Assembly: GCA_041909105.1 (NCBI GenBank)
Contig: JAYREE010000005.1
Coordinates: forward strand, 17,885 to 81,884
Source of the DNA: Azonexus sp.
GTDB lineage: Bacteria > Pseudomonadota > Gammaproteobacteria > Burkholderiales > Rhodocyclaceae
DNA: 64,000 nt
Direction of reading: 5' to 3'
A program made the translations under genes and the position numbers. Each line of letters starts with the position of its first letter. Position 1 is the stretch's first letter. The notes under the pieces were generated by a model. It did no database searches and was not told where the DNA came from. It saw only the letters and a program-made list of their open reading frames with translations. Below are positions 9,097-51,577 of the stretch, piece after piece.

Positions 9097-10158
9097 ATGA
9101 AGCATAACCGCCCCACCGTGGCCGATCTGGCGGCCTACGACGAGATCATCGACGTCCGCTCCCCGGCTGAATTCGCCGACGACCACATCCCCGGCGCCAT
9201 CAATTGCCCGGTGCTCGACGATGCTCAGCGTGCCGAGGTCGGCACCATCTACAAGCAGGTATCGCCGTTCGAGGCCAAAAAGATTGGTGCCGCCCTGGTC
9301 TCCGAAAACATTGCCCGCCACCTGAAAGAACGCTTTCTCGATCGCCCTAAGCATTGGAATCCGCTGATCTACTGTTGGCGCGGCGGCGACCGCAGCGGAT
9401 CGATGACCACGATTTTTCGTGCCATTGGCTGGCCGGCCGGACAACTCGATGGCGGCTACAAGGCATATCGCCGGCATGTGATCGAACAGTTGGAAGCTCT
9501 GCCCGGCCAATTCAGTTTCCGCGTGATCTGCGGCCCCACCGGCAGCGCCAAGACCTGTATTCTGCAAGCGCTGGACCGCCTGGGCGAACAAGTGCTCGAT
9601 CTGGAAACCCTGGCTTGCCACAAGGGTTCGGTACTCGGCATTTTGCCCAACCAGCCGCAACCCACCCAGAAAACCTTCGAAACCCTGCTCTGGCAGGCCT
9701 TGAGCAAATTCGACCCGGAGCGCCCGATCTACGTCGAAGCGGAAAGCCGCAAGATCGGCCGCATGCACGTACCGGAAGCATTGATCGAACGTATTCGCAA
9801 TGGCGAATGTCTGCAGATCGACGCCACGATCGAAGCGCGGGTCGACTTCCTGCTCGACGACTACGCCTACTTTTTTAACCTGCCCGACCTACTGATCACG
9901 CAACTGGGACACCTGCGCACCCTGCTCAGTCACGAAACCCTGTTGCGTTGGCAAAACCTCGTGCACCAAGCGGAATGGCCGACCTTGGTACGTGAACTCC
10001 TGGAACAGCACTACGATCCACTCTACCGCCGTTCGCAGAACAGCCATTTCACGGGGTTACGGCAACCGCTGGTTTTTACCCCCAACAGCCTGTGCACCGC
10101 AGCGATCGACGAAGTGGCCCAACAGATCGTTCACTCGCGTACCGCGCATATCGCTTGA
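9097..10158 (+). CDS. mnmH: tRNA 2-selenouridine(34) synthase
   Basis: Rhodanese N-terminus DVRSPAEF...HIPGAIN, YCWRGGDRS, GGYKAYR, P-loop GPTGSAKT, DLETLACHKGS, VEAESRKIG. Confidence 0.93.
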   Translation: MKHNRPTVADLAAYDEIIDVRSPAEFADDHIPGAINCPVLDDAQRAEVGTIYKQVSPFEAKKIGAALVSENIARHLKERFLDRPKHWNPLIYCWRGGDRSGSMTTIFRAIGWPAGQLDGGYKAYRRHVIEQLEALPGQFSFRVICGPTGSAKTCILQALDRLGEQVLDLETLACHKGSVLGILPNQPQPTQKTFETLLWQALSKFDPERPIYVEAESRKIGRMHVPEALIERIRNGECLQIDATIEARVDFLLDDYAYFFNLPDLLITQLGHLRTLLSHETLLRWQNLVHQAEWPTLVRELLEQHYDPLYRRSQNSHFTGLRQPLVFTPNSLCTAAIDEVAQQIVHSRTAHIA

Positions 10159-10655
10159 CGCATGGCCGGTTTGGGTTCGGCCACATAGCCCTCGACGAAG
10201 GCCAGTTGGCGCAGCCCGGCCAGCGCAATGACCGCTCTGAGCTCGCCCGGTCGCAGCAGAAAATCGGGCCGCGACGGCTTGCCGTAGGTCTCATTACCGA
10301 GCATGAAGGTTTCGTAGATCAACACGCCGCCAAGTGCCAGCAAGTCCAGCAACTCGGGCAGTCGGGGCCGCCATAAATAGTTGGTAACCACGATACCGTC
10401 AAACTGGCGGCCGGCCAAAGGCCAGCCCCCCTCCTCCTCCAGTTCCAGCCTTTCCGTAGCGATACCCGGCACCCCGTGCATGGAGGCCAAGGCTTCGCCA
10501 TCCCGGTCCACCGCCGTGACCCGATACCCCTGACCGGCCAGCCAGCGGGCATGACGCCCCTGACCGCAGGCGAGATCAAGAACACGGCCGCCCGCTTTCA
10601 GCTTGGCGGCGTGTGCCGTCACCCACGGCGAAGGCGGTATCATCGTAGGATTCAT
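10131..10655 (-). CDS. Class I SAM-dependent methyltransferase (TehB-like)
   Basis: VLDLACGQGRHA SAM motif, VVTNYLWRP, GGVLIYETF, FLLRPGEL; start codon uncertain (10673, 10655 or 10643). Confidence 0.85.
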   Translation of the reverse strand: MNPTMIPPSPWVTAHAAKLKAGGRVLDLACGQGRHARWLAGQGYRVTAVDRDGEALASMHGVPGIATERLELEEEGGWPLAGRQFDGIVVTNYLWRPRLPELLDLLALGGVLIYETFMLGNETYGKPSRPDFLLRPGELRAVIALAGLRQLAFVEGYVAEPKPAMRQAICAVRE

Positions 10656-10671
10656 TTCAGGGGAGAGCGAC

Positions 10672-11079
10672 ATGTCGAGCAAGGTCATCGTGGCGGAAAA
10701 CGGACAAGGAAGATACCAGCAGCAGGTCATTGCCGGCCAGCACCAATTGATTGCCGACGAGCCGGCCAGCATGGGCGGTGCCGATGCCGGGCCGGCGCCT
10801 TTCGATTTCATCATGAGCGGCCTGGGTGCCTGCACCTCGATGACCTTGCGCATGTACGCCGAGCGCAAGGGCCTGCCGCTGGTCAAAGTCACCGTCGAAT
10901 TGGCGCATGACAAGGTGGAGATCGATGGCGTGCAACGTGACCGCATCTGCCGCAACATCACACTGGAAGGCGACCTGAGCGCTGAGCAACGCCAACGCCT
11001 GCTCGAAATCGCCAATAAATGCCCGGTGCATCGCGCCCTGGCGCAATCCATCCTGCTCGACTGTACATTGACCGGATAA
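10672..11079 (+). CDS. OsmC/YhfA family protein
   Basis: ADEP...GG.D.GPAPFD, LGACTSMTLRMYA, IANKCPVHRAL (two conserved Cys). Confidence 0.9.
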   Translation: MSSKVIVAENGQGRYQQQVIAGQHQLIADEPASMGGADAGPAPFDFIMSGLGACTSMTLRMYAERKGLPLVKVTVELAHDKVEIDGVQRDRICRNITLEGDLSAEQRQRLLEIANKCPVHRALAQSILLDCTLTG

Positions 11080-14558: not shown

Positions 14559-14618
14559 TTGAAAAAGATCAGCTGGCCACGAACAGCAACGAAATGCACC
14601 TTCTTTGATTACGATCAG
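14559..14618. promoter_or_regulatory. Two FNR/Dnr-like boxes
   Basis: TTGAA-aaag-ATCAG (14559-14572, 8/10) and TTGAT-tacg-ATCAG (14605-14618, 9/10) against TTGAT-N4-ATCAA, upstream of the cytochrome c/OTR cluster. Confidence 0.6.
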
Positions 14619-14749: not shown

Positions 14750-15142
14750 ATGAAAATGCATACGTTCGCATCAGCCGCACTAGCGGCTTCCCTCACCTTG
14801 CTCAGTGCAACAGCAAGCGCCTACGATGCCGACTGGAAGCGCGGTCGTGTCTATTACCGAAGCGTTTGTACGGCTTGCCACGCTGCACAGGCCGGAGGCT
14901 CGATTGCCCCCAGCACAATGACCAAGGCTGAATGGGCTACTTACCTGAAAGCAGACAAGCATGCCAAAGGCAAGGATTCCATGAAGCAATACGTCAGCAA
15001 GAGTTACCGGGCCAGTATCAAGGCACAAAACAAGGCGGCTGAGAAATTCGCCGATGTTCCGGACGATGAACTACTGGAAGACATCCGGGCCTTTGTCGCC
15101 AAGGGCGCCAAAGATGGCGACTCGCCGGCCAGCTGCAGTTGA
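14750..15142 (+). CDS. Periplasmic monoheme c-type cytochrome
   Basis: Signal peptide ending ASA-YD; a single CTACH; C-terminus GDSPASCS. Confidence 0.85.
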   Translation: MKMHTFASAALAASLTLLSATASAYDADWKRGRVYYRSVCTACHAAQAGGSIAPSTMTKAEWATYLKADKHAKGKDSMKQYVSKSYRASIKAQNKAAEKFADVPDDELLEDIRAFVAKGAKDGDSPASCS

Positions 15143-15209
15143 GACTCCGGCTTGCCCTGAACGTTATTCCAGTTTAATTCGACGCTGATTCAGAACTCGG
15201 GAGTTCATC

Positions 15210-16352
15210 ATGAAATCCGCACGCTTTTTCGCGGCCGCGAGCTTGTTGGCCGTCCTCATTGTTGCCCCCTTGAGCAATTACTCTCTCGCCTTGGCCGCCG
15301 ATGCCGAAATCGTTCAAGCCAAGGAAGGCTGGTATGGCAAACGCGTCGATGATGCCTTCGTCGCCCGCTACGCCATCCTGCCAAAACCCGAGGGGGTACA
15401 GATCATCGATTCACGGCCAGCAAGCCGTAAATTTGACCCCGGCCATATCCCAACGGCCATCAACATCCCGGACAGTCAATTTGACAAGTTCGCCGACCAG
15501 TTGCCGCAGGACAAGAGCACGCTGCTCATCTTCTATTGCGAAGGCTACGAGTGCATGCTCAGCCATAACTCCGCCTTCAAGGCAGAGAAGCTCGGTTATA
15601 CCAATATCAATGTGTATGCCGAAGGCTATCCTGACTGGATCAAGAAGGGTCATATGGCTGCGGTGAGCGTTCCTTTCATCAAGAAACTACTGGATGAAAA
15701 ATCCCCGATGACATTGATCGACTCGCGCCCCAAGGAGCGCAAGTATGACAAGGGTCATATTCCTGGAGCCGTCAGCTTGCCCGACACGCAATTTGACAAG
15801 CTGGCAGCCGAACGCCTCCCGGCAGACAAGAACTCTGCACTTTATTTCTACTGCGAGGGGCTGACTTGCAAGCTGAGTACCGATTCAGCCGAGAAGGCCA
15901 TCAAATTGGGCTACACCAATGTCAAGGTCGTTCCGGAAGGCTACCCGCTGTGGGCCAAGCTTTATGGCCCCGGGCCAACAGGCGAAAATGCGGCATCGGC
16001 CACGCCGGCAATCCAGCAGGGCAAGGAAACCGGCACCATCACCGTCGCCTCCTTCGAGAAGATATTCAAGGAAACCCCGGAAAGCATTCACGTCATCGAT
16101 GTACGCGAGCCGCAGGAGTTTGCCGGCGGAGCTTTCAAGGGAGCGCGCAATATTCCGATCAACACCCTGGAAAAGCGCATCGATGAACTGCCGACCGACA
16201 AACCGATCGTCTTCGTCTGCGGCGCCGGCGGGCGCAGCGGTGAAGCTGTCGACATGGTCAAGCTCTACAAGCCTGCGCTCAAGACCTACTTCATGGATGC
16301 TGACATCAAATGGTCGAAGGATGGCAGCTATACCATCGTCGAGAAGAAGTAA
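15210..16352 (+). CDS. Exported triple-rhodanese-domain sulfurtransferase
   Basis: Signal peptide; repeats IIDSRP..GHIPTA..FYCEGYEC, LIDSRP..GHIPGA..FYCEGLTC and VIDVRE..GAFKGA..FVCGAGGRS. Confidence 0.88.
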   Translation: MKSARFFAAASLLAVLIVAPLSNYSLALAADAEIVQAKEGWYGKRVDDAFVARYAILPKPEGVQIIDSRPASRKFDPGHIPTAINIPDSQFDKFADQLPQDKSTLLIFYCEGYECMLSHNSAFKAEKLGYTNINVYAEGYPDWIKKGHMAAVSVPFIKKLLDEKSPMTLIDSRPKERKYDKGHIPGAVSLPDTQFDKLAAERLPADKNSALYFYCEGLTCKLSTDSAEKAIKLGYTNVKVVPEGYPLWAKLYGPGPTGENAASATPAIQQGKETGTITVASFEKIFKETPESIHVIDVREPQEFAGGAFKGARNIPINTLEKRIDELPTDKPIVFVCGAGGRSGEAVDMVKLYKPALKTYFMDADIKWSKDGSYTIVEKK

Positions 16353-16364
16353 GCGGGGAACAAC

Positions 16365-17957
16365 ATGTTGAAAATCCATTTCCTCGCCACTCTGGCTGCC
16401 CTCGCCTTGGCCTTGCCGGGAATCGCCGCCGAAGGCAAGCCCGTCAAGATGAACAGCACGGCTGATCACACCAAGTTCAAGGAACTGCAGGGCACCTTTG
16501 CCTCCGGCCCCGAAGTCACCAAAGCCTGCCTGACCTGCCACACCGAGGCCGCGGGCCAGGTACATCGAACCAAGCACTGGACTTGGGAGTTCCTGAATCC
16601 GGCCAACCAGCAGCGCCTTGGCAAGAAAAACGTCATCAACAACTTCTGCATCTCGATACCGTCGAACTATGCTTTCTGTACCAGTTGTCACGTAGGATAT
16701 GGCTGGAAAGATGCAAATTTCGACTTCAGCGCCGAAGAGAATGTCGACTGCCTGGCCTGCCATGACACCACCGGCAGTTATAAGAAGCTGCCCGGCCTTG
16801 CCGGCCATCCCCCGGTCAAGGACACCGAAGTACCTCCTGGATCTGGCAAGATCGTCAAGGGGATCGACCTGACCAAGGTTGCTCAGAAGGTGGGCAAGAC
16901 CAGTCGCGACACCTGCGGCAGTTGCCACTTCTTCGGCGGCGGCGGTGATGGCGTCAAGCATGGAGACATGGACTCCTCGCTAGCCGCCCCCGACAGGGAA
17001 CTCGACGTGCATATGGATGCGACTGGCCTTGATTTCACTTGCGGCACCTGCCACAAGACATCGAGCCACGATGTTCCTGGAAGCCGCTACACCCCGGTTG
17101 CCGTAGACCGTGACGGAGCACACATGCGTGGCAAGGAAGACAAATCGAGTCCTGTCACCTGCCAGAGTTGCCATGGCCAGTCACCGCACAAGGGGCGTGG
17201 CCTGCCTGCCAAGCTCAACGATCATACTGACAAGGTCGCCTGCCAGACCTGCCATATCCCGGCAATTGCCCGTGGCGGCGTAGCTACGAAAATGAACTGG
17301 GACTGGTCAACTGCCGGCAAGCTATCGCCTGAAGGAAAGCCAATCCTGAAGAAAGATGAAAAAGGGCGGATCATCTACGACTCCAAGAAAGGCGATTTCA
17401 CTCTTGGTGAAAACGTCGTTCCGGAATATGCCTGGTTCAACGGTGAGGTCACCTACACCTTGCTGAACGACAAGATCGAAAATACCGAAAGCATCACCAA
17501 GATCAATGCTCTTGGCGGAAGCCCAAGCGACGGTCGCTCGATGATATGGCCCCTGAAAGTCTTCCGAGGTACACAACCCTATGATGCGGAACACCGCACA
17601 CTGGTGACACCGCACACCGCGGGCAACGACGACACCGCCTATTGGAAGAATTTCGGCTGGGAAAAGGCGATCGAATCGGGAATGAAGGTCTCGGGAGCCC
17701 CATTCTCCGGCAAGGTGGGATTCATCAAGACCGAGATGTCATGGCCAATTACGCACATGGTCGCCCCCAAGGAAAAGGCTCTTGGCTGCAACGAATGTCA
17801 CGCCAAGGGGGGGCGCCTGGAAAAGGTCGCCGGCATCTACATCCCTGGTCGCGATGGCCATCCTCTGGTTAACACCTTGGGCTGGTTGGCCGCTGGTGGA
17901 CTCCTGTGTGGCGTTTCGCTGCATGGTCTGATCCGCTTCCTGCGTCGCAAGCAATGA
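16365..17957 (+). CDS. otr: Octaheme c-type cytochrome, tetrathionate reductase (OTR) family, with C-terminal membrane anchor
   Basis: Eight CxxCH motifs (CLTCH, CTSCH, CLACH, CGSCH, CGTCH, CQSCH, CQTCH, CNECH); GPEVTKAC, HWTWE, GKKNVINNFC, ITHMVAPKEKAL; signal peptide and C-terminal TM helix. Confidence 0.92.
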   Translation: MLKIHFLATLAALALALPGIAAEGKPVKMNSTADHTKFKELQGTFASGPEVTKACLTCHTEAAGQVHRTKHWTWEFLNPANQQRLGKKNVINNFCISIPSNYAFCTSCHVGYGWKDANFDFSAEENVDCLACHDTTGSYKKLPGLAGHPPVKDTEVPPGSGKIVKGIDLTKVAQKVGKTSRDTCGSCHFFGGGGDGVKHGDMDSSLAAPDRELDVHMDATGLDFTCGTCHKTSSHDVPGSRYTPVAVDRDGAHMRGKEDKSSPVTCQSCHGQSPHKGRGLPAKLNDHTDKVACQTCHIPAIARGGVATKMNWDWSTAGKLSPEGKPILKKDEKGRIIYDSKKGDFTLGENVVPEYAWFNGEVTYTLLNDKIENTESITKINALGGSPSDGRSMIWPLKVFRGTQPYDAEHRTLVTPHTAGNDDTAYWKNFGWEKAIESGMKVSGAPFSGKVGFIKTEMSWPITHMVAPKEKALGCNECHAKGGRLEKVAGIYIPGRDGHPLVNTLGWLAAGGLLCGVSLHGLIRFLRRKQ

Positions 17958-17969
17958 ATGGTGGTCATC

Positions 17970-18584
17970 ATGGAACGAATCTACATTTTCACGCGATTTG
18001 AACGTTTCTGGCACTGGACGCAGGCGCTGCTCATTATCGGCATGCTGTTCACGGGCTTTGAAATCCATGGCAGCTTCTATGCGCTCGGCTTCAAGACGGC
18101 ACATCAGGTGCATACCGTTGCAGCATGGGCACTGATCACCCTGTGGGTATTCGCCATCTTCTGGCATTTCACGACAGGCGAATGGCGACAATACATTCCG
18201 ACGATGCAGGGAGTTGACAAGATCATCCGGCACTACGCCTGGGGAATCTTCAAGGGAGAACCACATCCCTTCAAGGTGACCCGTGCGCACAAGCACAACC
18301 CGATGCAAGCTCAGGCCTATCTGGGCGTCAAGGTACTGATTAATCCCCTGATCTGGATCTCCGGGCTGGCCTACCTCTTCTACAACGAACTGGCCGCCTC
18401 GGGATATCCCATTGAGCTAGGTACTATCGCACTTGCACACACAGTCGGAGCATTTCTGATGCTGGCTTTTCTCATCGTTCACGTTTATCTGATCACCACG
18501 GGCCATACGCTGACTGCACATCTGAAAGCAATGATCACCGGTTGGGACGAAGTGGAGAACGCGAGCGAAAAATCCTGCAACTGA
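17970..18584 (+). CDS. Cytochrome b/b6 domain membrane subunit (PhsC/HyaC-like quinol-interacting partner)
   Basis: FERFWHWTQA, TGFEIHG, HQVHT, WHFTTGEWRQY, KHNPMQ, LAHTVGAF, VHVYL; alternative start at 17958. Confidence 0.9.
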   Translation: MERIYIFTRFERFWHWTQALLIIGMLFTGFEIHGSFYALGFKTAHQVHTVAAWALITLWVFAIFWHFTTGEWRQYIPTMQGVDKIIRHYAWGIFKGEPHPFKVTRAHKHNPMQAQAYLGVKVLINPLIWISGLAYLFYNELAASGYPIELGTIALAHTVGAFLMLAFLIVHVYLITTGHTLTAHLKAMITGWDEVENASEKSCN

Positions 18585-18596
18585 TGTCGCAATAGC

Positions 18597-18622
18597 ACCG
18601 GGTGCCCGAGAGCACCCGGTTT
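18597..18622 (+). terminator. Hairpin, possible weak terminator or mRNA-processing stem, between cytochrome b and rquA
   Basis: ACCGGGTGC-ccgaga-GCACCCGGT followed by only TT. Confidence 0.4.
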
Positions 18623-18646
18623 CACAACTGCCAATCCGCCTTAGCC

Positions 18647-19393
18647 ATGAAAAACAACAACGACGGCATCGCCGTAGCATTGCCCCATCCCCCACAGAAC
18701 CCCCACCCCCAGACTGATATCCCCGATTACCTGCAACGCGTTTACTGGTGGGCTTATCTGCACCCGAAGGCCGTTCACCTGTTCGAACGCGAATGGCTGG
18801 TCAATCTGATCCTGTGGGGTAATTTCGCCCGCCTGCGCGATGCCGCTCTGGACGAGTTGGGTCAGAAGATCGAAAACAACGTGCTACAAATCGCCTGTGT
18901 CTACGGCGACTTCACCCAGCGCATCGTCAGCCGCCTGTCTGGCGAGGGCTCACTCGAAGTCGTCGATGTTGCCCCGATACAGTTGGACAATCTGCGACGG
19001 AAACTTCCCTCGCACCCGGCAGTCCGTCTGCGTCTTCAAGATGCGAGTGCATTACATTATCCGGACGGGCACTTCGATGCGACCCTGCTCTTCTTCCTTC
19101 TCCATGAACAGCCGGAAGCCATACGGCGAGCTACGCTGGCCGAAGCAATACGTGTCACCCAGCCAGGCGGAAAAATAGTCATCGTCGACTATCACCGCCC
19201 GTCGCGCCTACATCCGTTGCATTTCCCGATGCAGATTGTGCTCCGCACACTCGAGCCATTCGCCATGGATCTCTGGCTCCATGACATTGTCGACTATTTA
19301 CCTGCCACTTCGGCACAAGACCTTGTTATCGAGAAGCAGTGCTACTTTGGCGACCTCTACCAGAAACTTGTAATTCGTCGCCGAAGGGGTTGA
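18647..19393 (+). CDS. rquA: Rhodoquinone biosynthesis protein RquA (methyltransferase fold)
   Basis: IPDYLQRVYWWAYLHP...FEREWLVNLILWGN, VLQIACVYGD, DVAPIQL, FFLLHEQP, VDYHRP, GDLYQK; signature N-terminus of RquA. Confidence 0.9.
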   Translation: MKNNNDGIAVALPHPPQNPHPQTDIPDYLQRVYWWAYLHPKAVHLFEREWLVNLILWGNFARLRDAALDELGQKIENNVLQIACVYGDFTQRIVSRLSGEGSLEVVDVAPIQLDNLRRKLPSHPAVRLRLQDASALHYPDGHFDATLLFFLLHEQPEAIRRATLAEAIRVTQPGGKIVIVDYHRPSRLHPLHFPMQIVLRTLEPFAMDLWLHDIVDYLPATSAQDLVIEKQCYFGDLYQKLVIRRRRG

Positions 19394-19468
19394 AGGAGCA
19401 GACTCCGACTAGCGCCCACGAGTAGCTTGGCGTTATTCTGTTGCGCAAACTACCTCAGGAGAGACAAA

Positions 19469-20599
19469 GTGCCGGCGCTACTGCCCCATCCCGATCCCGA
19501 TGGACTGCTCGAATACTCGGTGGTCTATACCGACCGCGCGCTGAATCATATGTCACAGCGCTTCCAAGGCGTCATGAAGGACATTTCCCGCCTGTTGAAG
19601 AAGGTCTATAACGCCAAGGCAGCGGTCGTCGTGCCGGGCAGCGGCACCTTCGGAATGGAGGCCGTGGCCCGCCAGTTCGCTACCGACCAGAAAGTACTGG
19701 TCATCCGCAACGGCTGGTTCAGCTTCCGCTGGACGCAGATTTTCGAGATGGGGCGCATTCCCGCCGAAAGCATCGTGCTCAAGGCTCGCCAGACCGGGAG
19801 CGGCGCCCAGGCACCGTTCGCTCCCTGCCCGATCGACGAGGTCGTCGCCACGATCCGTACGCAAAAACCGGCCGTGGTCTTCGCACCGCACGTCGAAACG
19901 GCATCCGGCATGATCCTGCCCGACAGCTACATCCAGACCGTCGGCGCGGCCGTGCGCGAAGTGGGCGGGCTGTTCGTGCTTGACTGCGTAGCGTCCGGCA
20001 CCGTGTGGGTCGACATGCAGCAGAACGACGTCGATGTGCTGATCAGCGCCCCGCAAAAGGGCTGGAGCGCCTCACCGTGCTGCGCCCTGATCGGCCTGGG
20101 CGAACGCGCCCTCGCCCGCATCGAGCAAACCACCAGCACCAGCTTTGCTTGCGATCTGAAGAAATGGCTGCAGATCATGCTGGCCTTCGAGAATGGTGGC
20201 CATGCCTACCATGCCACCATGCCGACTGATGCGCTAACCAGCATGCGCGACGTGATGCTGGAAACCGAAGCCTACGGCTTCGCCAAGGTGTGCGAGGAAC
20301 AGCAGGAGCTTGGCCGGCGCGTGCGCGAACTGCTCGAATCGCGCGGTTTCCCAAGCGTCGCGGCCGAGGGTTTCAAGGCCCCCGGTGTCGTCGTCAGCTA
20401 CACCACCGATCCCGATATCCAGTCCGGCAAGAAATTCATCGCCGCCGGCCTGCAAACGGCGGCCGGCGTTCCCCTCCAATGCGACGAAGGCCCGGATTTC
20501 CGGACCTTCCGCATCGGTCTGTTTGGCCTGGAAAAACTGCACAACCCGGAGCGCACCGTGGCCAATCTGGCCAAGGGGCTCGACTCAGTGCTCGCCTGA
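19469..20599 (+). CDS. Class V PLP aminotransferase (alanine/serine-glyoxylate aminotransferase family)
   Basis: GTG start after AGGAGA; EYSVVYTDRALNHMS, PGSGTFGMEAVARQF, HVETASG, LDCVASG, SAPQKGWS (PLP lysine). Confidence 0.88.
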   Translation: MPALLPHPDPDGLLEYSVVYTDRALNHMSQRFQGVMKDISRLLKKVYNAKAAVVVPGSGTFGMEAVARQFATDQKVLVIRNGWFSFRWTQIFEMGRIPAESIVLKARQTGSGAQAPFAPCPIDEVVATIRTQKPAVVFAPHVETASGMILPDSYIQTVGAAVREVGGLFVLDCVASGTVWVDMQQNDVDVLISAPQKGWSASPCCALIGLGERALARIEQTTSTSFACDLKKWLQIMLAFENGGHAYHATMPTDALTSMRDVMLETEAYGFAKVCEEQQELGRRVRELLESRGFPSVAAEGFKAPGVVVSYTTDPDIQSGKKFIAAGLQTAAGVPLQCDEGPDFRTFRIGLFGLEKLHNPERTVANLAKGLDSVLA

Positions 20600-21379
20600 G
20601 TACTTTTTCTCGCCCGCCGGTACCGGGAAGGGCAACCAGTTCTCGGGCGGCGGCAACGGGCAGGTGGCGAAAGGCGTAAAGGCGCAAGGCGGGTTGTAGG
20701 CGCGATTGAAGTCGAGCACGATCTGCCCGCTTTCTGCTGGCAGCGCCTTCAGAAAACGACCGGCGCCGTAGCTTTCCCTGCCGCTCGTGCGGTCGCGGAA
20801 GACGAAAAAGATCTCTTTGTCGCTTTCCGACATCGGCAACAGTTCGACGTTTTGCCCAGCCACGTTGAAGACAGCCTTGTGCTTCACTTCGACCGCTTTC
20901 AATTCGCCAGTTACATTGGGCACCTCCATCGACAACGGCGGCGAGAGTTCTTGCCATTGTGCCTCGCAGATCCAGGCCGCATCCTCGGGGAAATAGTCGA
21001 GTCCGGCAAAATGCTGCTGGCTGGCCCAGTCCAGATCGCGAACCCGCGCTGCCAACCGCCCTTCGCGCTCGACGATGAAAAATGCCAGTTTTTCGATGTG
21101 CACCGCAGTAGGCTGCCCCGCATGATCGGTTTCGAGTTCACGCTCCGATTCTCCGGTCGCCTGCCAGAAAACACGCGAGCCATCGACCCGCAACACTCCC
21201 ACTTGCTCAGACCAGGATGGCAGACGCACGGCACATTCCTCTGCACTGCCTACGGAGTTGAGGCCTGCCTCCAACCAGAACAATCCGATCAGACCGAGCC
21301 AACTTTCCGGGGCTGAGAGTTCAGCAATACGGCCCGCTTGCCAATCGGCGAGTGAGAGAAAATTATTCGCTTGCTTCAT
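20585..21379 (-). CDS. DUF1684 domain-containing protein
   Basis: FRDRTSGRESYGAGRFL, LDFNRAYNPPCAFTPFATCPLPPPEN. Confidence 0.9.
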   Translation of the reverse strand: MKQANNFLSLADWQAGRIAELSAPESWLGLIGLFWLEAGLNSVGSAEECAVRLPSWSEQVGVLRVDGSRVFWQATGESERELETDHAGQPTAVHIEKLAFFIVEREGRLAARVRDLDWASQQHFAGLDYFPEDAAWICEAQWQELSPPLSMEVPNVTGELKAVEVKHKAVFNVAGQNVELLPMSESDKEIFFVFRDRTSGRESYGAGRFLKALPAESGQIVLDFNRAYNPPCAFTPFATCPLPPPENWLPFPVPAGEKKYSGEH

Positions 21380-47406: not shown

Positions 47407-49551
47407 ATGGAAGATCTCGCCACCGTATTGGTAGTTGATGACGAACCGGTAATGCGTACGATTACCCAATCGATCCTGCAGCAAAACGGTTTTGAGGTTA
47501 TTACCGCCGACTCGGCAGAAGCAGCATTTCAGTTGATCGATGAAGGACTATTCCCGGATATCGTGCTGCTCGATGTCCTGATGCCCGGTCTCAACGGTTT
47601 CCAGACCTGCTACCGGCTACGTCAGCAGCAACGTTTCGAACACCTGCCCATCATCATGCTGACCGCACTGGACGACCAAGCGTCGATTGACGAGGCTTAT
47701 CGTAGCGGTGCCACCGACTTCATCACCAAGCCACTGAATATCCCGCTGCTGCCTCACCGCATCCGGTATCTACTGCGCTCGGCAAACGCCTTCAAAGAGG
47801 TTTTCGCCAGCCGGATGACGCTGCTAAACACCCAGCATATCGCTCATCTTGGAAACTGGACGATGGACCCGGAGGGCAACATCGTCACCGCCTCGGCGCA
47901 GTATCTCGACATCATCGGAGAAAACTCCTCCCCCATCCCCGCGCCTCGCCTGCTATTCCGCGTCCATCGTGAAGATCGCGAACTGCTTATCCAGCATCGC
48001 CGCCTACTTCAGGAGGGACAACCCTATCGCCTCGACTATCGCCTGCGCAATCTAACCGACCCGAATACTTGGCACCACGTCCATGAACGCGGTTTCCCGA
48101 ATATCGACCGGGATGGCCGCTATCAGGGTGCGACCGGCTTCACTCAGGACATCACCGAACGAGCCCAGCAGGAAGAGAGAATCCGTGATCTCGCTTGGCA
48201 TGATCGAGTCACCGGGTTGAACAACCGTGGCCGCTTGAGCGAACTAATCGAACGTGAAATCGTCTCTGGCCGCCAGCAGATTTCTCTAGCCGTTCTCTAC
48301 GTCCATATCGCAAGCCTGCGTGAAATCTCGACAGTATTCGGCCAAGAGGTTGCCGATAGTGCCATCCGCGTCCTCTCAGAGCGACTCAAGGAACTACTGC
48401 ACACGCCTGAAAAAATGTGCAACTGTTTCGACAAGGCATGCTTCCTTGCCGCAAAACTGGGGCGTTACGACGAGCACGCTTTCGCCTTGGCAGTGACAGG
48501 CGTAACAAGTGAAGAGCCAATACGCTGCTTTGCCAACACCATCCTGAAGCACTTGTCCGAACCGATGATTCTGCAAGGTCAGGAAACGGTGTTCAAAGTA
48601 TTCCTCGGTATAGCGCTCTATCCGCAAGATGCCCCCGATACCCCTGAGTTGATACGGCGCGCCATGCTGTGTGCAATGCATGCAGCTGCTGGCGATGGCA
48701 GTGACCCCATCAGCTTCTTCGACCCCGAACATGATCGTGAAGCTGCCGAGCGCGTCGCACTAGAGCGCGGCTTGCGCATCGCTCTCGACCAAAGCAGCCA
48801 GCTTGTTCCCTATTTCCAGCCCAAGGTTTGCGCTCACACTGGACAGATTGTGGGAGCCGAGGTGCTGCTGCGTTGGCTGCATCCAGAGCGGGGCATGATC
48901 TCCCCGGCCAAATTTATTCCGATCGCCGAGCAAAGCGGCCTGATCCATCCAATCAGCGAATGGTTGGTTGCCCGTATCTGTGAAACCATTGCCGACTGGC
49001 TAGCGTGGAAACAAGAAATCGGCATGATCAGCATCAATCTTTCTGCGGCAAGCTTTTATCAGCGTACATTGATCCAGTTCATCGACGAGGTGCTTCAAAG
49101 GACTGGTATCCCCGGGAAACAATTGGTCATCGAACTGACCGAGGGAGTACTGTTGCAAAACTCCGACACAGCCAGCCATGTGATCAATGCGTTACGTGAG
49201 CGAGGCATTCGAATTTCGCTGGATGATTTCGGTACCGGCTTTTCCTCGCTCGGCTACCTTAACCGTTTCAACATTGACGAAATCAAGATCGATCGTTCCT
49301 TCGTCATTGACATCGAACGCGACTCTCGCGAACTCGCCTTGGTTCAGGGTATCATCACGCTAGGTCATGCCTTGGGTTTGAAGGTCGTTGCCGAAGGTGT
49401 CGAAACTGCTCGCCAAGCGCAACTGCTACGCGAAATGGGATGCGACATCTTTCAGGGATTCCTTTTCGCAAAGCCCATGCCAGGTGACGAATTCATCCGC
49501 CTTCCGGCTCAGTTATCAGTACCCTCTGAACATCCTGAAAAATTTTCGTAG
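47407..49551 (+). CDS. REC-PAS-degenerate GGDEF-EAL protein (probable c-di-GMP phosphodiesterase)
   Basis: VVDDE...LLDVLMPG...TKP; HDRVTGLNNR; GGDEF replaced by RYDEHAF; EVLLRW, INLSA, ELTE, DDFGTGFSSL, KIDRSF, AEGVE, QGFLF. Confidence 0.92.
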   Translation: MEDLATVLVVDDEPVMRTITQSILQQNGFEVITADSAEAAFQLIDEGLFPDIVLLDVLMPGLNGFQTCYRLRQQQRFEHLPIIMLTALDDQASIDEAYRSGATDFITKPLNIPLLPHRIRYLLRSANAFKEVFASRMTLLNTQHIAHLGNWTMDPEGNIVTASAQYLDIIGENSSPIPAPRLLFRVHREDRELLIQHRRLLQEGQPYRLDYRLRNLTDPNTWHHVHERGFPNIDRDGRYQGATGFTQDITERAQQEERIRDLAWHDRVTGLNNRGRLSELIEREIVSGRQQISLAVLYVHIASLREISTVFGQEVADSAIRVLSERLKELLHTPEKMCNCFDKACFLAAKLGRYDEHAFALAVTGVTSEEPIRCFANTILKHLSEPMILQGQETVFKVFLGIALYPQDAPDTPELIRRAMLCAMHAAAGDGSDPISFFDPEHDREAAERVALERGLRIALDQSSQLVPYFQPKVCAHTGQIVGAEVLLRWLHPERGMISPAKFIPIAEQSGLIHPISEWLVARICETIADWLAWKQEIGMISINLSAASFYQRTLIQFIDEVLQRTGIPGKQLVIELTEGVLLQNSDTASHVINALRERGIRISLDDFGTGFSSLGYLNRFNIDEIKIDRSFVIDIERDSRELALVQGIITLGHALGLKVVAEGVETARQAQLLREMGCDIFQGFLFAKPMPGDEFIRLPAQLSVPSEHPEKFS

Positions 49552-49555
49552 ACTG

Positions 49556-51577
49556 ATGCGCCTTAGATGGAATATCCACCGCTTCGTGTTTGCGACAATG
49601 CTCGCAGCCAGCGGCATATCAAACGCCAACTTTGATGCCATCGACATCCCACTGGAAGACCTCTCGAAGGTAACCATCATTTCAGCGCCAAAATTTGCTG
49701 AGAATTCCGATCAAATTCCTTCATTAGTTTCAGTACTGACGGCCAGCGACATTCGCCTTTTCGGCTAGCGGACACTGAGCGAAGCGCTGCGCTCCCTACA
49801 GGGCTTCAACGTTACCGACGATCACACCTATGCTTACGCCAGTGTGCGTGGCATCTCGCCAGCAGGCGACTACCGGGCTCGCATGCAGGTTCTCATCGAC
49901 GGCATTGCAGTTAACGAAAACATCTACGGTAGCGCCCCCATGGGCAGTGAATTTCCGGTCGACCTGGGCCTCGTCGAGCGCATCGAAGTCATCCGTGGCC
50001 CCAGCGCCTCGGTCTATGGCAGCGATTCGATGTTCGGCGTGATCAACGTCGTCACCCGCAGCGGACAAAGCGTGAGCGGAGGAGAAGCAGGCCTGAGCGT
50101 CGGCAGCGACCGCAACTTCCGTTTACGTACCAGCCTTGGCGGAAACATCGGCGGTAGCGACTTGTTGGTTTCATTTTCCGGCTATGACTCAAGCGGCCGT
50201 GGCCTGGTATTCAATGACACCAATGCCTCCGGCGAAGCACAACGACTGCATGCCATCGGTGAAGAGCAAGGCGGGCAACTCTTTGTGCGCGCCCGCGGCT
50301 CCGATTGGCGAGTCACCCTGATCCACAGCCAGCGTGACCGCACGGTGCCGACCGCGAGTTTTAGCACCATCGCCGATGACAAAGGGCACGTCGAATCCGA
50401 CCGCTATTCATTGCTCGACCTTGGCAAGGATTGGCGGATCAATGCCAAAAACACTTTGCAGCAACGGCTATACGCTAGCGAATACGGTTACGATGGGAAA
50501 TTTCCCTATGATTATTCCGACAGCGGTGGCCCTAGCCGCCTATTCAACGTCGACAAGGCGCGCGGTAACGCTTGGGGACTGGAAAATCGCCTGATCAACA
50601 CCGCCTTGGACAAACAACGGTGGACCATCGGTCTTGAGTATCGAGCCAACACCCGCCAAGACCAACTAAACTACGACCGCGGCGTGGGTTGTTACGATAG
50701 CTCTGCGGGAACCTCAAGCGGCAGTCCCTGCCTTGATGACCGGCGTAACAATCACATTTTCACCCTATACGCTCAGGATGAAATTCAGGTCGGTGAGGCA
50801 AATACCCTGATCGTGGGAGCCCGGCATGACCGCGTCAGTGACAGCGGGAATTTCTGGAGTCCACGCCTGGGCTTGATCCATGATGCCGGTGCTCTGGGTT
50901 TGTTCAAACTGCTCTACGGTACGGCTTTCCGCACCCCCTCGCCCTACGAACGTGCCTACATCACGCCATCCTATAGCTACGGCGACCCCGGCATTGGCCC
51001 GGAACGGCTGAAATCCCTCGAACTAACTTGGGAAAAACGTTTCTCCAACCTCGCCAAAATCAGTGCAACCGCCTACTCGATGCGCATAGATGGCCTGGTC
51101 ACCGTAAACCCCGACACCGGTATCGTTGCCAACGAAACCCCGGTTCGCGCCAATGGCCTTGAACTCGGCTATGAACAACGCTGGACGAACGGCGTCCAGC
51201 TACGCGGCAGTGTGTCGACGCAATACGCCGCAAGTGACGCCGGCCGCCTAGATAACTCGCCGCGCCACATGGCCAAGCTCAACGTTGGCTTGCCGACTGG
51301 AATCGCCGGGTTGATGGCCGGCCTTGAAAGCCAATGGATAGGCGAACGTCTGGCTAACTACGGTAGTGAAAAGGTCAGCCCATACCTTTTGACCAATCTG
51401 AATTTCTCCTATGCCCCGCTTGGCAGCAATTGGGAGACAGGCTTGGGAATCTACAACCTGTTCGATCGGCGCTACACAGATCCTGTCTCACCGGACGAAC
51501 CCACTACCGGTATTACCCGTTGGTCGATGCCGCAACTGGGACGCAGCATTCAGCTGCGGACTCTAATTCGTTTTTGA
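49556..51577 (+). pseudogene. TonB-dependent receptor interrupted by an in-frame TAG at 49766-49768
   Basis: Track ORFs 49388..49768 and 49844..51577 share one frame. Joined: MRLRW...PLEDL...DIRLFG*RTLSEALRSL...RMQVLIDG...VERIEVIRGPSASVYG...C-terminal F. The stop sits where Trp (TGG) is expected. Confidence 0.88.

Follow-up and report, generated by a model that had tools for sequence, protein, structure and literature searches.

An octahaem cytochrome module beside the rhodoquinone biosynthesis gene rquA in Azonexus and its relatives

Discussions of rhodoquinone have dealt almost exclusively with fumarate reduction. In the frdABCD-rquA clusters of Betaproteobacteria and Gammaproteobacteria (for example in Rhodoferax and Competibacteraceae), as in the rhodoquinone use of Rhodospirillum rubrum, the partner is fumarate reductase. 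Here we describe a locus whose partner is a periplasmic multihaem cytochrome, located in a 64-kb stretch of an Azonexus sp. contig (JAYREE010000005.1) that comes from an activated-sludge metagenome and has Azonexus sp. IMCC34839 as its nearest genome; this whole stretch is referred to as the window, and all coordinates are window positions. Five genes on the plus strand, within 14750-19393, encode a monohaem cytochrome c, a triple rhodanese, an octahaem cytochrome of the OTR family, a cytochrome b and RquA (Table 1). A preliminary description of this DNA had named the same five co-oriented genes, and each of its family assignments holds. As in the frdABCD-rquA clusters, rquA directly follows, in the same orientation, the genes of what would be a membrane quinol-oxidizing anaerobic reductase.

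Judged by gene order across genomes, the first four genes are an autonomous, widespread module, and rquA is a separate gene that has been joined to it in relatives of Azonexus and Dechloromonas. The reading we prefer, at a probability of roughly 0.5, is that these two separable units now form one, probably anoxia-induced, unit, in which a quinol:OTR reductase of sulfur compounds would be co-expressed with rhodoquinone synthesis. A 2024 survey of quinones in Pseudomonadota treats the genes gained with low-potential quinones as an open question (PMC11707229). The locus, together with the wider pattern of rquA neighbours, provides concrete candidates for further rhodoquinol-dependent respiratory enzymes, and the same gene string is present in cultured strains (Dechloromonas sp. 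A34 and Azonexus sp. IMCC34839) of lineages that are abundant in wastewater treatment. In addition, the OTR module emerges as a conserved set of four genes that includes a dedicated rhodanese, which points to a sulfur substrate for the OTR family.

Gene products and their described counterparts

The OTR of Shewanella oneidensis (SO_4144) has been studied as a soluble periplasmic protein that receives menaquinol electrons via CymA and STC, and the enzyme has nitrite and hydroxylamine reductase activity in vitro (PMC4484225). The window protein belongs to the same TIGR04315 tetrathionate reductase family (641 bits against a cut-off of 375) and shares about 50% of its residues with the Shewanella enzyme (PDB 1SP3; E = 2.5e-117). 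The eight CXXCH motifs, common to both proteins, are all invariant among 89 homologues, and 99-100% of these sequences also keep Lys87 and Cys95, the counterparts by alignment of 1SP3 residues Lys56 and Cys64. Mowat and colleagues are said to have identified Lys56 as a haem ligand in 2004. Unlike its Shewanella counterpart, the window OTR carries a C-terminal membrane helix, the hydrophobic end of its subfamily that is absent from the 1SP3 chain, and is accompanied by an invariably adjacent dihaem cytochrome b and by a triple rhodanese. The Shewanella gene has SO_4143 and SO_4142 as neighbours, and a monohaem cytochrome c neighbour is common to both systems, SO_4142 being the counterpart of the window's cytochrome c (PMC5789149). 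Between the two systems, rquA stands beside OTR in the window lineage only, and the window's host group is typically without menaquinone.

The cytochrome b matches PF01292 at 76 bits (cut-off 30), and its residues His19, His52, His161 and His175 are invariant in 76 homologues, as expected for a protein that holds two b haems. Its best NCBIfam match is PhsC (NF011582), the corresponding subunit of the Salmonella thiosulfate reductase PhsABC, at 117 bits and below the equivalog cut-off of 204 bits; by this score the protein is PhsC-like, but not PhsC. PhsC is part of a menaquinol-dependent low-potential sulfur reductase, and the Phs system follows the logic proposed here, in which a low-potential quinol supplies periplasmic sulfur reduction. 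Catalysis in PhsABC is carried out by a molybdoenzyme with an iron-sulfur subunit, whereas the catalytic subunit of the window system would be the haem c protein.

A second likeness is to Wolinella succinogenes, in which the periplasmic, rhodanese-like Sud is encoded together with a quinol-dependent sulfur reductase (polysulfide reductase) that uses a low-potential quinone, an arrangement like the one proposed for the window. The two reductases are unrelated in sequence, and the window rhodanese is a three-domain protein, in which domains 1 and 2 carry CX4C motifs and domain 3 the classical CGAGGRS active-site loop. Every domain has an active-site cysteine (Cys110, Cys215 and Cys337), the additional cysteines of the CX4C pairs are Cys115 and Cys220, and none of these residues varies among 26 homologues. 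Of the NCBIfam models, the rhodanese part of selenoprotein TsoB matches best. Because the CX4C pairs in the active-site loops are invariant, and because of the TsoB match, a redox-active or persulfide-relay role is suggested rather than that of a plain sulfurtransferase. In the exported cytochrome c, whose start is preceded by GGAG at a distance of 8 nucleotides (nt), the haem-binding residues Cys40, Cys43 and His44, together with His71, are invariant in 31 homologues.

RquA covers the whole of the NF038261 model (positions 1-218 of 218; 296 bits, cut-off 175) and is 82% identical to the RquA of Azonexus sp. IMCC34839. The start of the gene is most likely ATG 18647 and not GTG 18602, since the database copy P0001 (248 residues) and the orthologues start there. 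According to work attributed to Neupane and colleagues (in 2022), S-adenosylmethionine is reportedly the source of the amino group that RquA introduces. The function of RquA has been demonstrated in 15 other species (PMC11707229).

Distribution of the module and of rquA

The linkage was followed from both of its ends. On the rquA side, one genome per species was scanned, more than 520 species with RquA were found, and the 80 closest loci were compared; on the OTR side, the comparison covered the 80 closest OTR loci in metagenomes, about 64 of which have enough downstream DNA (L- and P-numbers designate compared loci and proteins). The module of cytochrome c, rhodanese, OTR and cytochrome b is present in 4 of the 80 rquA loci (L001, L006, L008 and L011), always directly upstream of rquA. 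The dominant rquA partner in this set is the co-oriented frdABCD-rquA arrangement; FrdA is encoded in at least 31 of the 80 loci and any frd gene in at least 39. Neither frd genes nor ubi genes were found in the 64 kb of the window. From the OTR side, the cytochrome b gene directly follows OTR in nearly all 80 loci, and about 30 of these loci also encode the cytochrome c and the triple rhodanese, mostly ordered OTR-cytb-cytc-...-rhodanese, whereas rquA follows cytochrome b in only two of the informative loci (L081 and L082). These frequencies do not bear out the proposal of the preliminary description that rquA is an integral part of a self-contained chain, and the neighbourhood comparison confines the linkage to Azonexus- and Dechloromonas-like relatives.

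Including the window, the adjacency of cytochrome b and rquA was found at eight loci (L001, L006, L008, L011, L081, L082 and L161 being the others), and in three upstream contexts: behind acs-DUF3460-DUF3567, behind frdAB (L008) or behind other genes (L011). The frdAB genes that precede the L008 module are of the Wolinella type (NF006383, 1100 bits; NF010071, 412 bits). In the Azonexus and Dechloromonas relatives the distance from cytochrome b to rquA is 60-130 nt, and the complete arrangement of the window recurs in Dechloromonas sp. A34.

The chromosomal site of the window exists in three states. At L007, L012, L020 and L023 rquA stands there alone, between the same flanks, namely acs, DUF3460 and DUF3567 on one side and an aminotransferase gene and DUF1684 on the other. 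At L163, which is syntenic on both sides (DUF3460 upstream, aminotransferase downstream), the module is present and rquA is absent. The third state, module and rquA together, is that of the window, and the module and rquA are therefore separable units. The same four-gene order with no rquA nearby is also found in Azoarcus sp. Aa7, in a Noviherbaspirillum genome and around P0131; the OTRs of these rquA-less modules, L163 included, show 74-80% identity. On a neighbour-joining tree, the RquAs encoded beside OTR do not form a clade: those of the window and L001 group with Thauera, that of L006 pairs with the module-less L007, and that of L008 pairs with L023. Movement of the five genes as one cassette was rejected on account of both this lack of grouping and the module standing alone at the syntenic site of L163.

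We note that L008 and L023 belong to one genome bin, and that the two rquA copies of this bin are most closely related to each other. The L023 copy lies alone at the acs-DUF3460 site, and the L008 copy lies behind frdAB and the OTR module; the pair could reflect a duplication or a mix of strains.

Precedent for the linkage exists in another class. Supplementary file 4 of Stairs et al. 2018 (PMC5953543) tabulates, without comment, the order frd-cytochrome b561-OTR-rquA-COQ10-nuo for Caenispirillum bisanense and rquA-OTR-cytochrome b561-frdA for C. salinarum, both of them Alphaproteobacteria and both with a gene order other than that of the window. The same study reports a general linkage of rquA to respiratory genes and also tabulates MtrB/PioB next to rquA in Burkholderiales JOSHI_001 and Noviherbaspirillum denitrificans (PMC5953543). 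A literature search on rquA with octahaem cytochromes, and on rhodoquinone with tetrathionate or multihaem proteins, returned nothing relevant beyond this supplement. The supposition that rquA had not been described at an OTR locus thus needs amending, since two species had already been tabulated, although neither was discussed.

Multihaem cytochromes recur in the wider neighbourhood of rquA. A cytochrome with at least four haems is encoded in the flanks of 23 of the 80 closest rquA loci, which we take as enrichment in view of what is generally known about the density of cytochrome genes. An MtrB/PioB porin, often with decahaem cytochromes, stands beside rquA in ten loci (L022, L027, L029, L036, L039, L040, L041, L044, L050 and L055; for example L027:3894-6242, TIGR03509, 433 bits), and because these porins adjoin rquA there is a hint that rhodoquinone may be linked to extracellular electron transfer. 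Eight loci (L024, L036, L038, L043, L045, L056, L071 and L077) encode a fusion protein of about 685 residues, with 8-9 CXXCH motifs and a cytochrome b-like membrane domain (for example L038:3952-6009), whose gene immediately precedes frdABCD-rquA in the same orientation. A DmsE-like cytochrome together with a PF01292 cytochrome b is found at five loci. Because the link between rquA and OTR recurs behind the frd genes of L008 and in Caenispirillum, and because rquA often lies beside multihaem or quinol-linked modules, it is probably not meaningless.

Regulation of the gene string

The five genes are closely spaced (intergenic gaps of 67, 12, 0 and 62 nt along the string, then 33 nt to the aminotransferase gene). 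The preliminary description had placed them downstream of FNR-like boxes, of which one is kept at five of six orthologous loci. This candidate box, TTGATTACGATCAG, has its centre about 139 nt ahead of the start of the cytochrome c gene, with no clear -10 element assigned. At L001, L006 (weaker, 8/10), L008 and L082 an FNR-like box precedes the module by a similar distance of about 100-140 nt, and at L011 there is only a poor match (7/10). The second box, TTGAAAAAGATCAG, does not share this conservation and is likely a chance or auxiliary site. Across the window, FNR-like sites with one mismatch are not enriched (2 found, 1.38 expected by chance), and since this count is not above chance, the case for a possible FNR-type control lies in the positional conservation of the box. 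In a Shewanella study, otr, SO4143 and SO4142 share a table row with fnr, frd, nap and cco genes, and judged by these members the row would appear to be an Fnr/EtrA regulon (PMC3424579).

The other FNR-like site in this count, ATGATCAGCATCAA (49024-49037), lies upstream of an apparent TonB-dependent receptor gene. This gene is split into two open reading frames, one at 49388-49768 and one at 49844-51577 that begins within the plug domain; a frameshift or an error of sequencing may account for the split.

On the plus strand, no terminator-like site was found between the cytochrome c gene and the end of the aminotransferase gene. The 62-nt spacer between cytochrome b and rquA yielded no terminator or promoter match, only a hairpin, and hairpins that differ in sequence occupy the same spacer in L001, L006, L008, L011 and L081. 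The window hairpin was rejected as an intrinsic terminator, since it has no U run and falls short of the terminator criteria. The lone rquA of L023, by comparison, has an FNR-like box of its own upstream. The pattern of the spacer would fit read-through from the module promoter into rquA, perhaps damped by the hairpin, and the gene string is probably a single anoxia-regulated unit.

No RNA runs with the window's own sequence were found. RNA-labelled wastewater runs cover the corresponding locus of Candidatus Dechloromonas phosphorivorans (L011), where one contig bridges cytochrome b and rquA; coverage is equally low and even over the genes, the upstream genes and the promoter and intergenic DNA. 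A frameshift in the OTR gene of this locus (L011:4413) was considered as the mark of a pseudogene and rejected; it is an assembly error, since independent contigs from two runs lack the extra base.

Table 1. Coordinates of the rquA locus and associated sequence features
Feature	Window positions	Strand	Basis and remarks
Weaker FNR-like site, TTGAAAAAGATCAG	14559-14572	not assigned	8/10; not conserved in L001
Candidate FNR/CRP-family box, TTGATTACGATCAG	14605-14618	not assigned	9/10 versus TTGAT-N4-ATCAA
Exported monohaem cytochrome c (130 residues)	14750-15142	+	PF13442; one CXXCH; signal peptide
Exported triple rhodanese	15210-16352	+	PF00581 x3, E = 1e-45; signal peptide
OTR-family octahaem cytochrome c with C-terminal membrane helix	16365-17957	+	TIGR04315; 8 CXXCH; signal peptide
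Dihaem cytochrome b (PhsC/FdnI-like), presumed quinol/quinone site	17958-18584	+	PF01292
GC-rich hairpin in the cytochrome b-rquA spacer	18597-18620	+	9-bp stem, 6-nt loop, no U run
rquA, rhodoquinone biosynthesis enzyme (248 residues)	18647-19393	+	NF038261
Class V aminotransferase	19427-20599	+	profile match; possibly co-transcribed
First terminator-like hairpin with T run downstream of the string	20583-20604	+	

Proposed electron flow, alternative readings and flanking genes

An inorganic sulfur compound seems to us a more likely OTR substrate than nitrite or hydroxylamine, because the module stably retains the rhodanese, because YeeE/TsuA-type transporters (PF04143) and extra rhodaneses adjoin the module in several loci, and because conservation extends to the cysteine close to the active-site haem. 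The preliminary description had assumed periplasmic sulfur chemistry with the rhodanese as part of a self-contained chain; its sulfur substrate is retained, the rhodanese being kept with OTR and cytochrome b in many loci, and the self-contained character is given up. PF04143 genes of the YeeE/YedE/TsuA type, for putative transporters of sulfur or thiosulfate, are found beside the OTR module at L165:8660-9892 and in the context of P0131 (Magnetospirillum sp. UT-4 and another betaproteobacterial contig).

The potential of ubiquinone is much higher than that of rhodoquinone, and ubiquinol can reduce tetrathionate and nitrite, but not polysulfide or thiosulfate. The contribution of rhodoquinol would therefore be greatest with a true substrate of low potential. 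Rhodoquinone has a potential of about -63 mV and rarely co-occurs with menaquinone in one species (PMC11707229). The low-potential quinone logic put forward for this locus is accordingly sound in thermodynamic terms, with rhodoquinone as a surrogate for menaquinone at this potential.

In the reading we prefer, the dihaem cytochrome b would exchange electrons with the quinone pool, and electrons would then pass to the membrane-held octahaem OTR, whose lysine-ligated active-site haem would act on an inorganic sulfur compound that has an S-S bond, be it tetrathionate, a polythionate, polysulfide or a persulfide. The triple rhodanese, in the periplasm, would deliver or process this compound, and the monohaem cytochrome c may provide a second electron route. 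The product of rquA would convert ubiquinone to rhodoquinone, and since rquA behind cytochrome b has no recognizable promoter of its own, it would be made under the same FNR-type signal. Rhodoquinol would then serve as a general low-potential pool for anaerobic quinol-dependent enzymes, of which the OTR-cytochrome b pair is one likely user, neither the sole nor an obligate one; its use of rhodoquinol would be plausible. Of this reading, the sequences establish the identities of the genes, the conservation of catalytic residues, the autonomy of the module and the narrow spread of the link, whereas the direction of electron flow, the substrate, co-transcription and the use of rhodoquinol are inferred.

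More tentatively, this arrangement may be one instance of a broader pattern, which we consider possible but rather doubtful: rhodoquinone could act as a general menaquinone surrogate in ubiquinone-only Betaproteobacteria, co-acquired or co-located with periplasmic multihaem modules (OTR-cytochrome b, porin-cytochromes of the MtrAB/PioAB type and multihaem-cytochrome b fusions), here feeding a rhodoquinol:sulfur-compound oxidoreductase composed of OTR, cytochrome b and triple rhodanese.

Several points weigh against the preferred reading. Most OTR modules have no rquA nearby. The conserved spacer hairpin could attenuate read-through into rquA. The bridging contig of L011 was rejected as evidence of co-transcription, because the promoter region is covered like the genes, and the even coverage possibly reflects carry-over of DNA. 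Finally, none of the substrates known from in vitro work on OTR needs rhodoquinone on thermodynamic grounds, because the potentials of tetrathionate, nitrite and hydroxylamine are high enough for ubiquinol.

The alternative that survives best is that the two units are uncoupled neighbours in a variable site, where rquA would serve a fumarate reductase encoded elsewhere and OTR-cytochrome b would draw on ubiquinol or pass electrons through cytochrome c. The site between DUF3460/DUF3567 and the aminotransferase gene is indeed variable, with other insertions in addition to its three states, frdABCD is the more usual company of rquA, the known OTR substrates are of high potential, and the module has a cytochrome c of its own. 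However, the adjacency recurs in differing upstream contexts and, in Alphaproteobacteria, in another gene order; rquA is always immediately downstream and on the same strand, without the FNR box that is present when it stands alone; and it lies repeatedly beside other quinol-linked multihaem modules. On balance we consider mere neighbourhood unlikely.

Less probable still is the dedicated, self-contained chain, in which rquA would be integral and OTR would obligatorily need rhodoquinol for polythionate or polysulfide chemistry, in either direction. The tight co-oriented string behind a single FNR-like box, the recurrence of the adjacency at eight loci and in Caenispirillum, the position of the L008 module between frdAB and rquA, and the resemblance of the cytochrome b to PhsC, with its menaquinol dependence, would all agree with such a chain; the scarcity of the link on both the rquA and the OTR side, the modules with closely similar OTRs that lack rquA, the occurrence of the module alone (L163) or rquA alone at the syntenic site, and the failure of OTR-linked RquAs to form a clade speak against it. 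That the module does not reduce sulfur compounds at all, and instead uses thiosulfate or sulfane sulfur oxidatively (cytochrome c or quinone receiving the electrons) or detoxifies nitrite or hydroxylamine, rquA being incidental, is the most improbable of the three, for although the in vitro activities of Shewanella OTR, the dedicated monohaem cytochrome c as a possible link to a high-potential chain and a host lineage of wastewater denitrifiers could be cited in its favour, the rhodanese and sulfur-transporter neighbours argue otherwise, the FNR-type box and the rquA linkage fit a reductive anaerobic role, and rhodoquinone at -63 mV could not take electrons from thiosulfate oxidation.

The genes around the string belong to the resident chromosome. 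The aminotransferase gene stays beside DUF1684 in relatives, wherever rquA or the module sits, and for this reason it is regarded as a flank gene outside the system and was rejected as a gene of rhodoquinone synthesis. The remaining window is ordinary chromosome, encoding ClpB, RF3, MoaE, a chemoreceptor, Tex and two-component systems. Upstream of acs lie genes for a rhodanese/SelU-type protein (9097-10158; similar to tRNA 2-selenouridine synthase) and for a TehB-like methyltransferase (10131-11051), both of which are kept in relatives and are unrelated to the OTR module.

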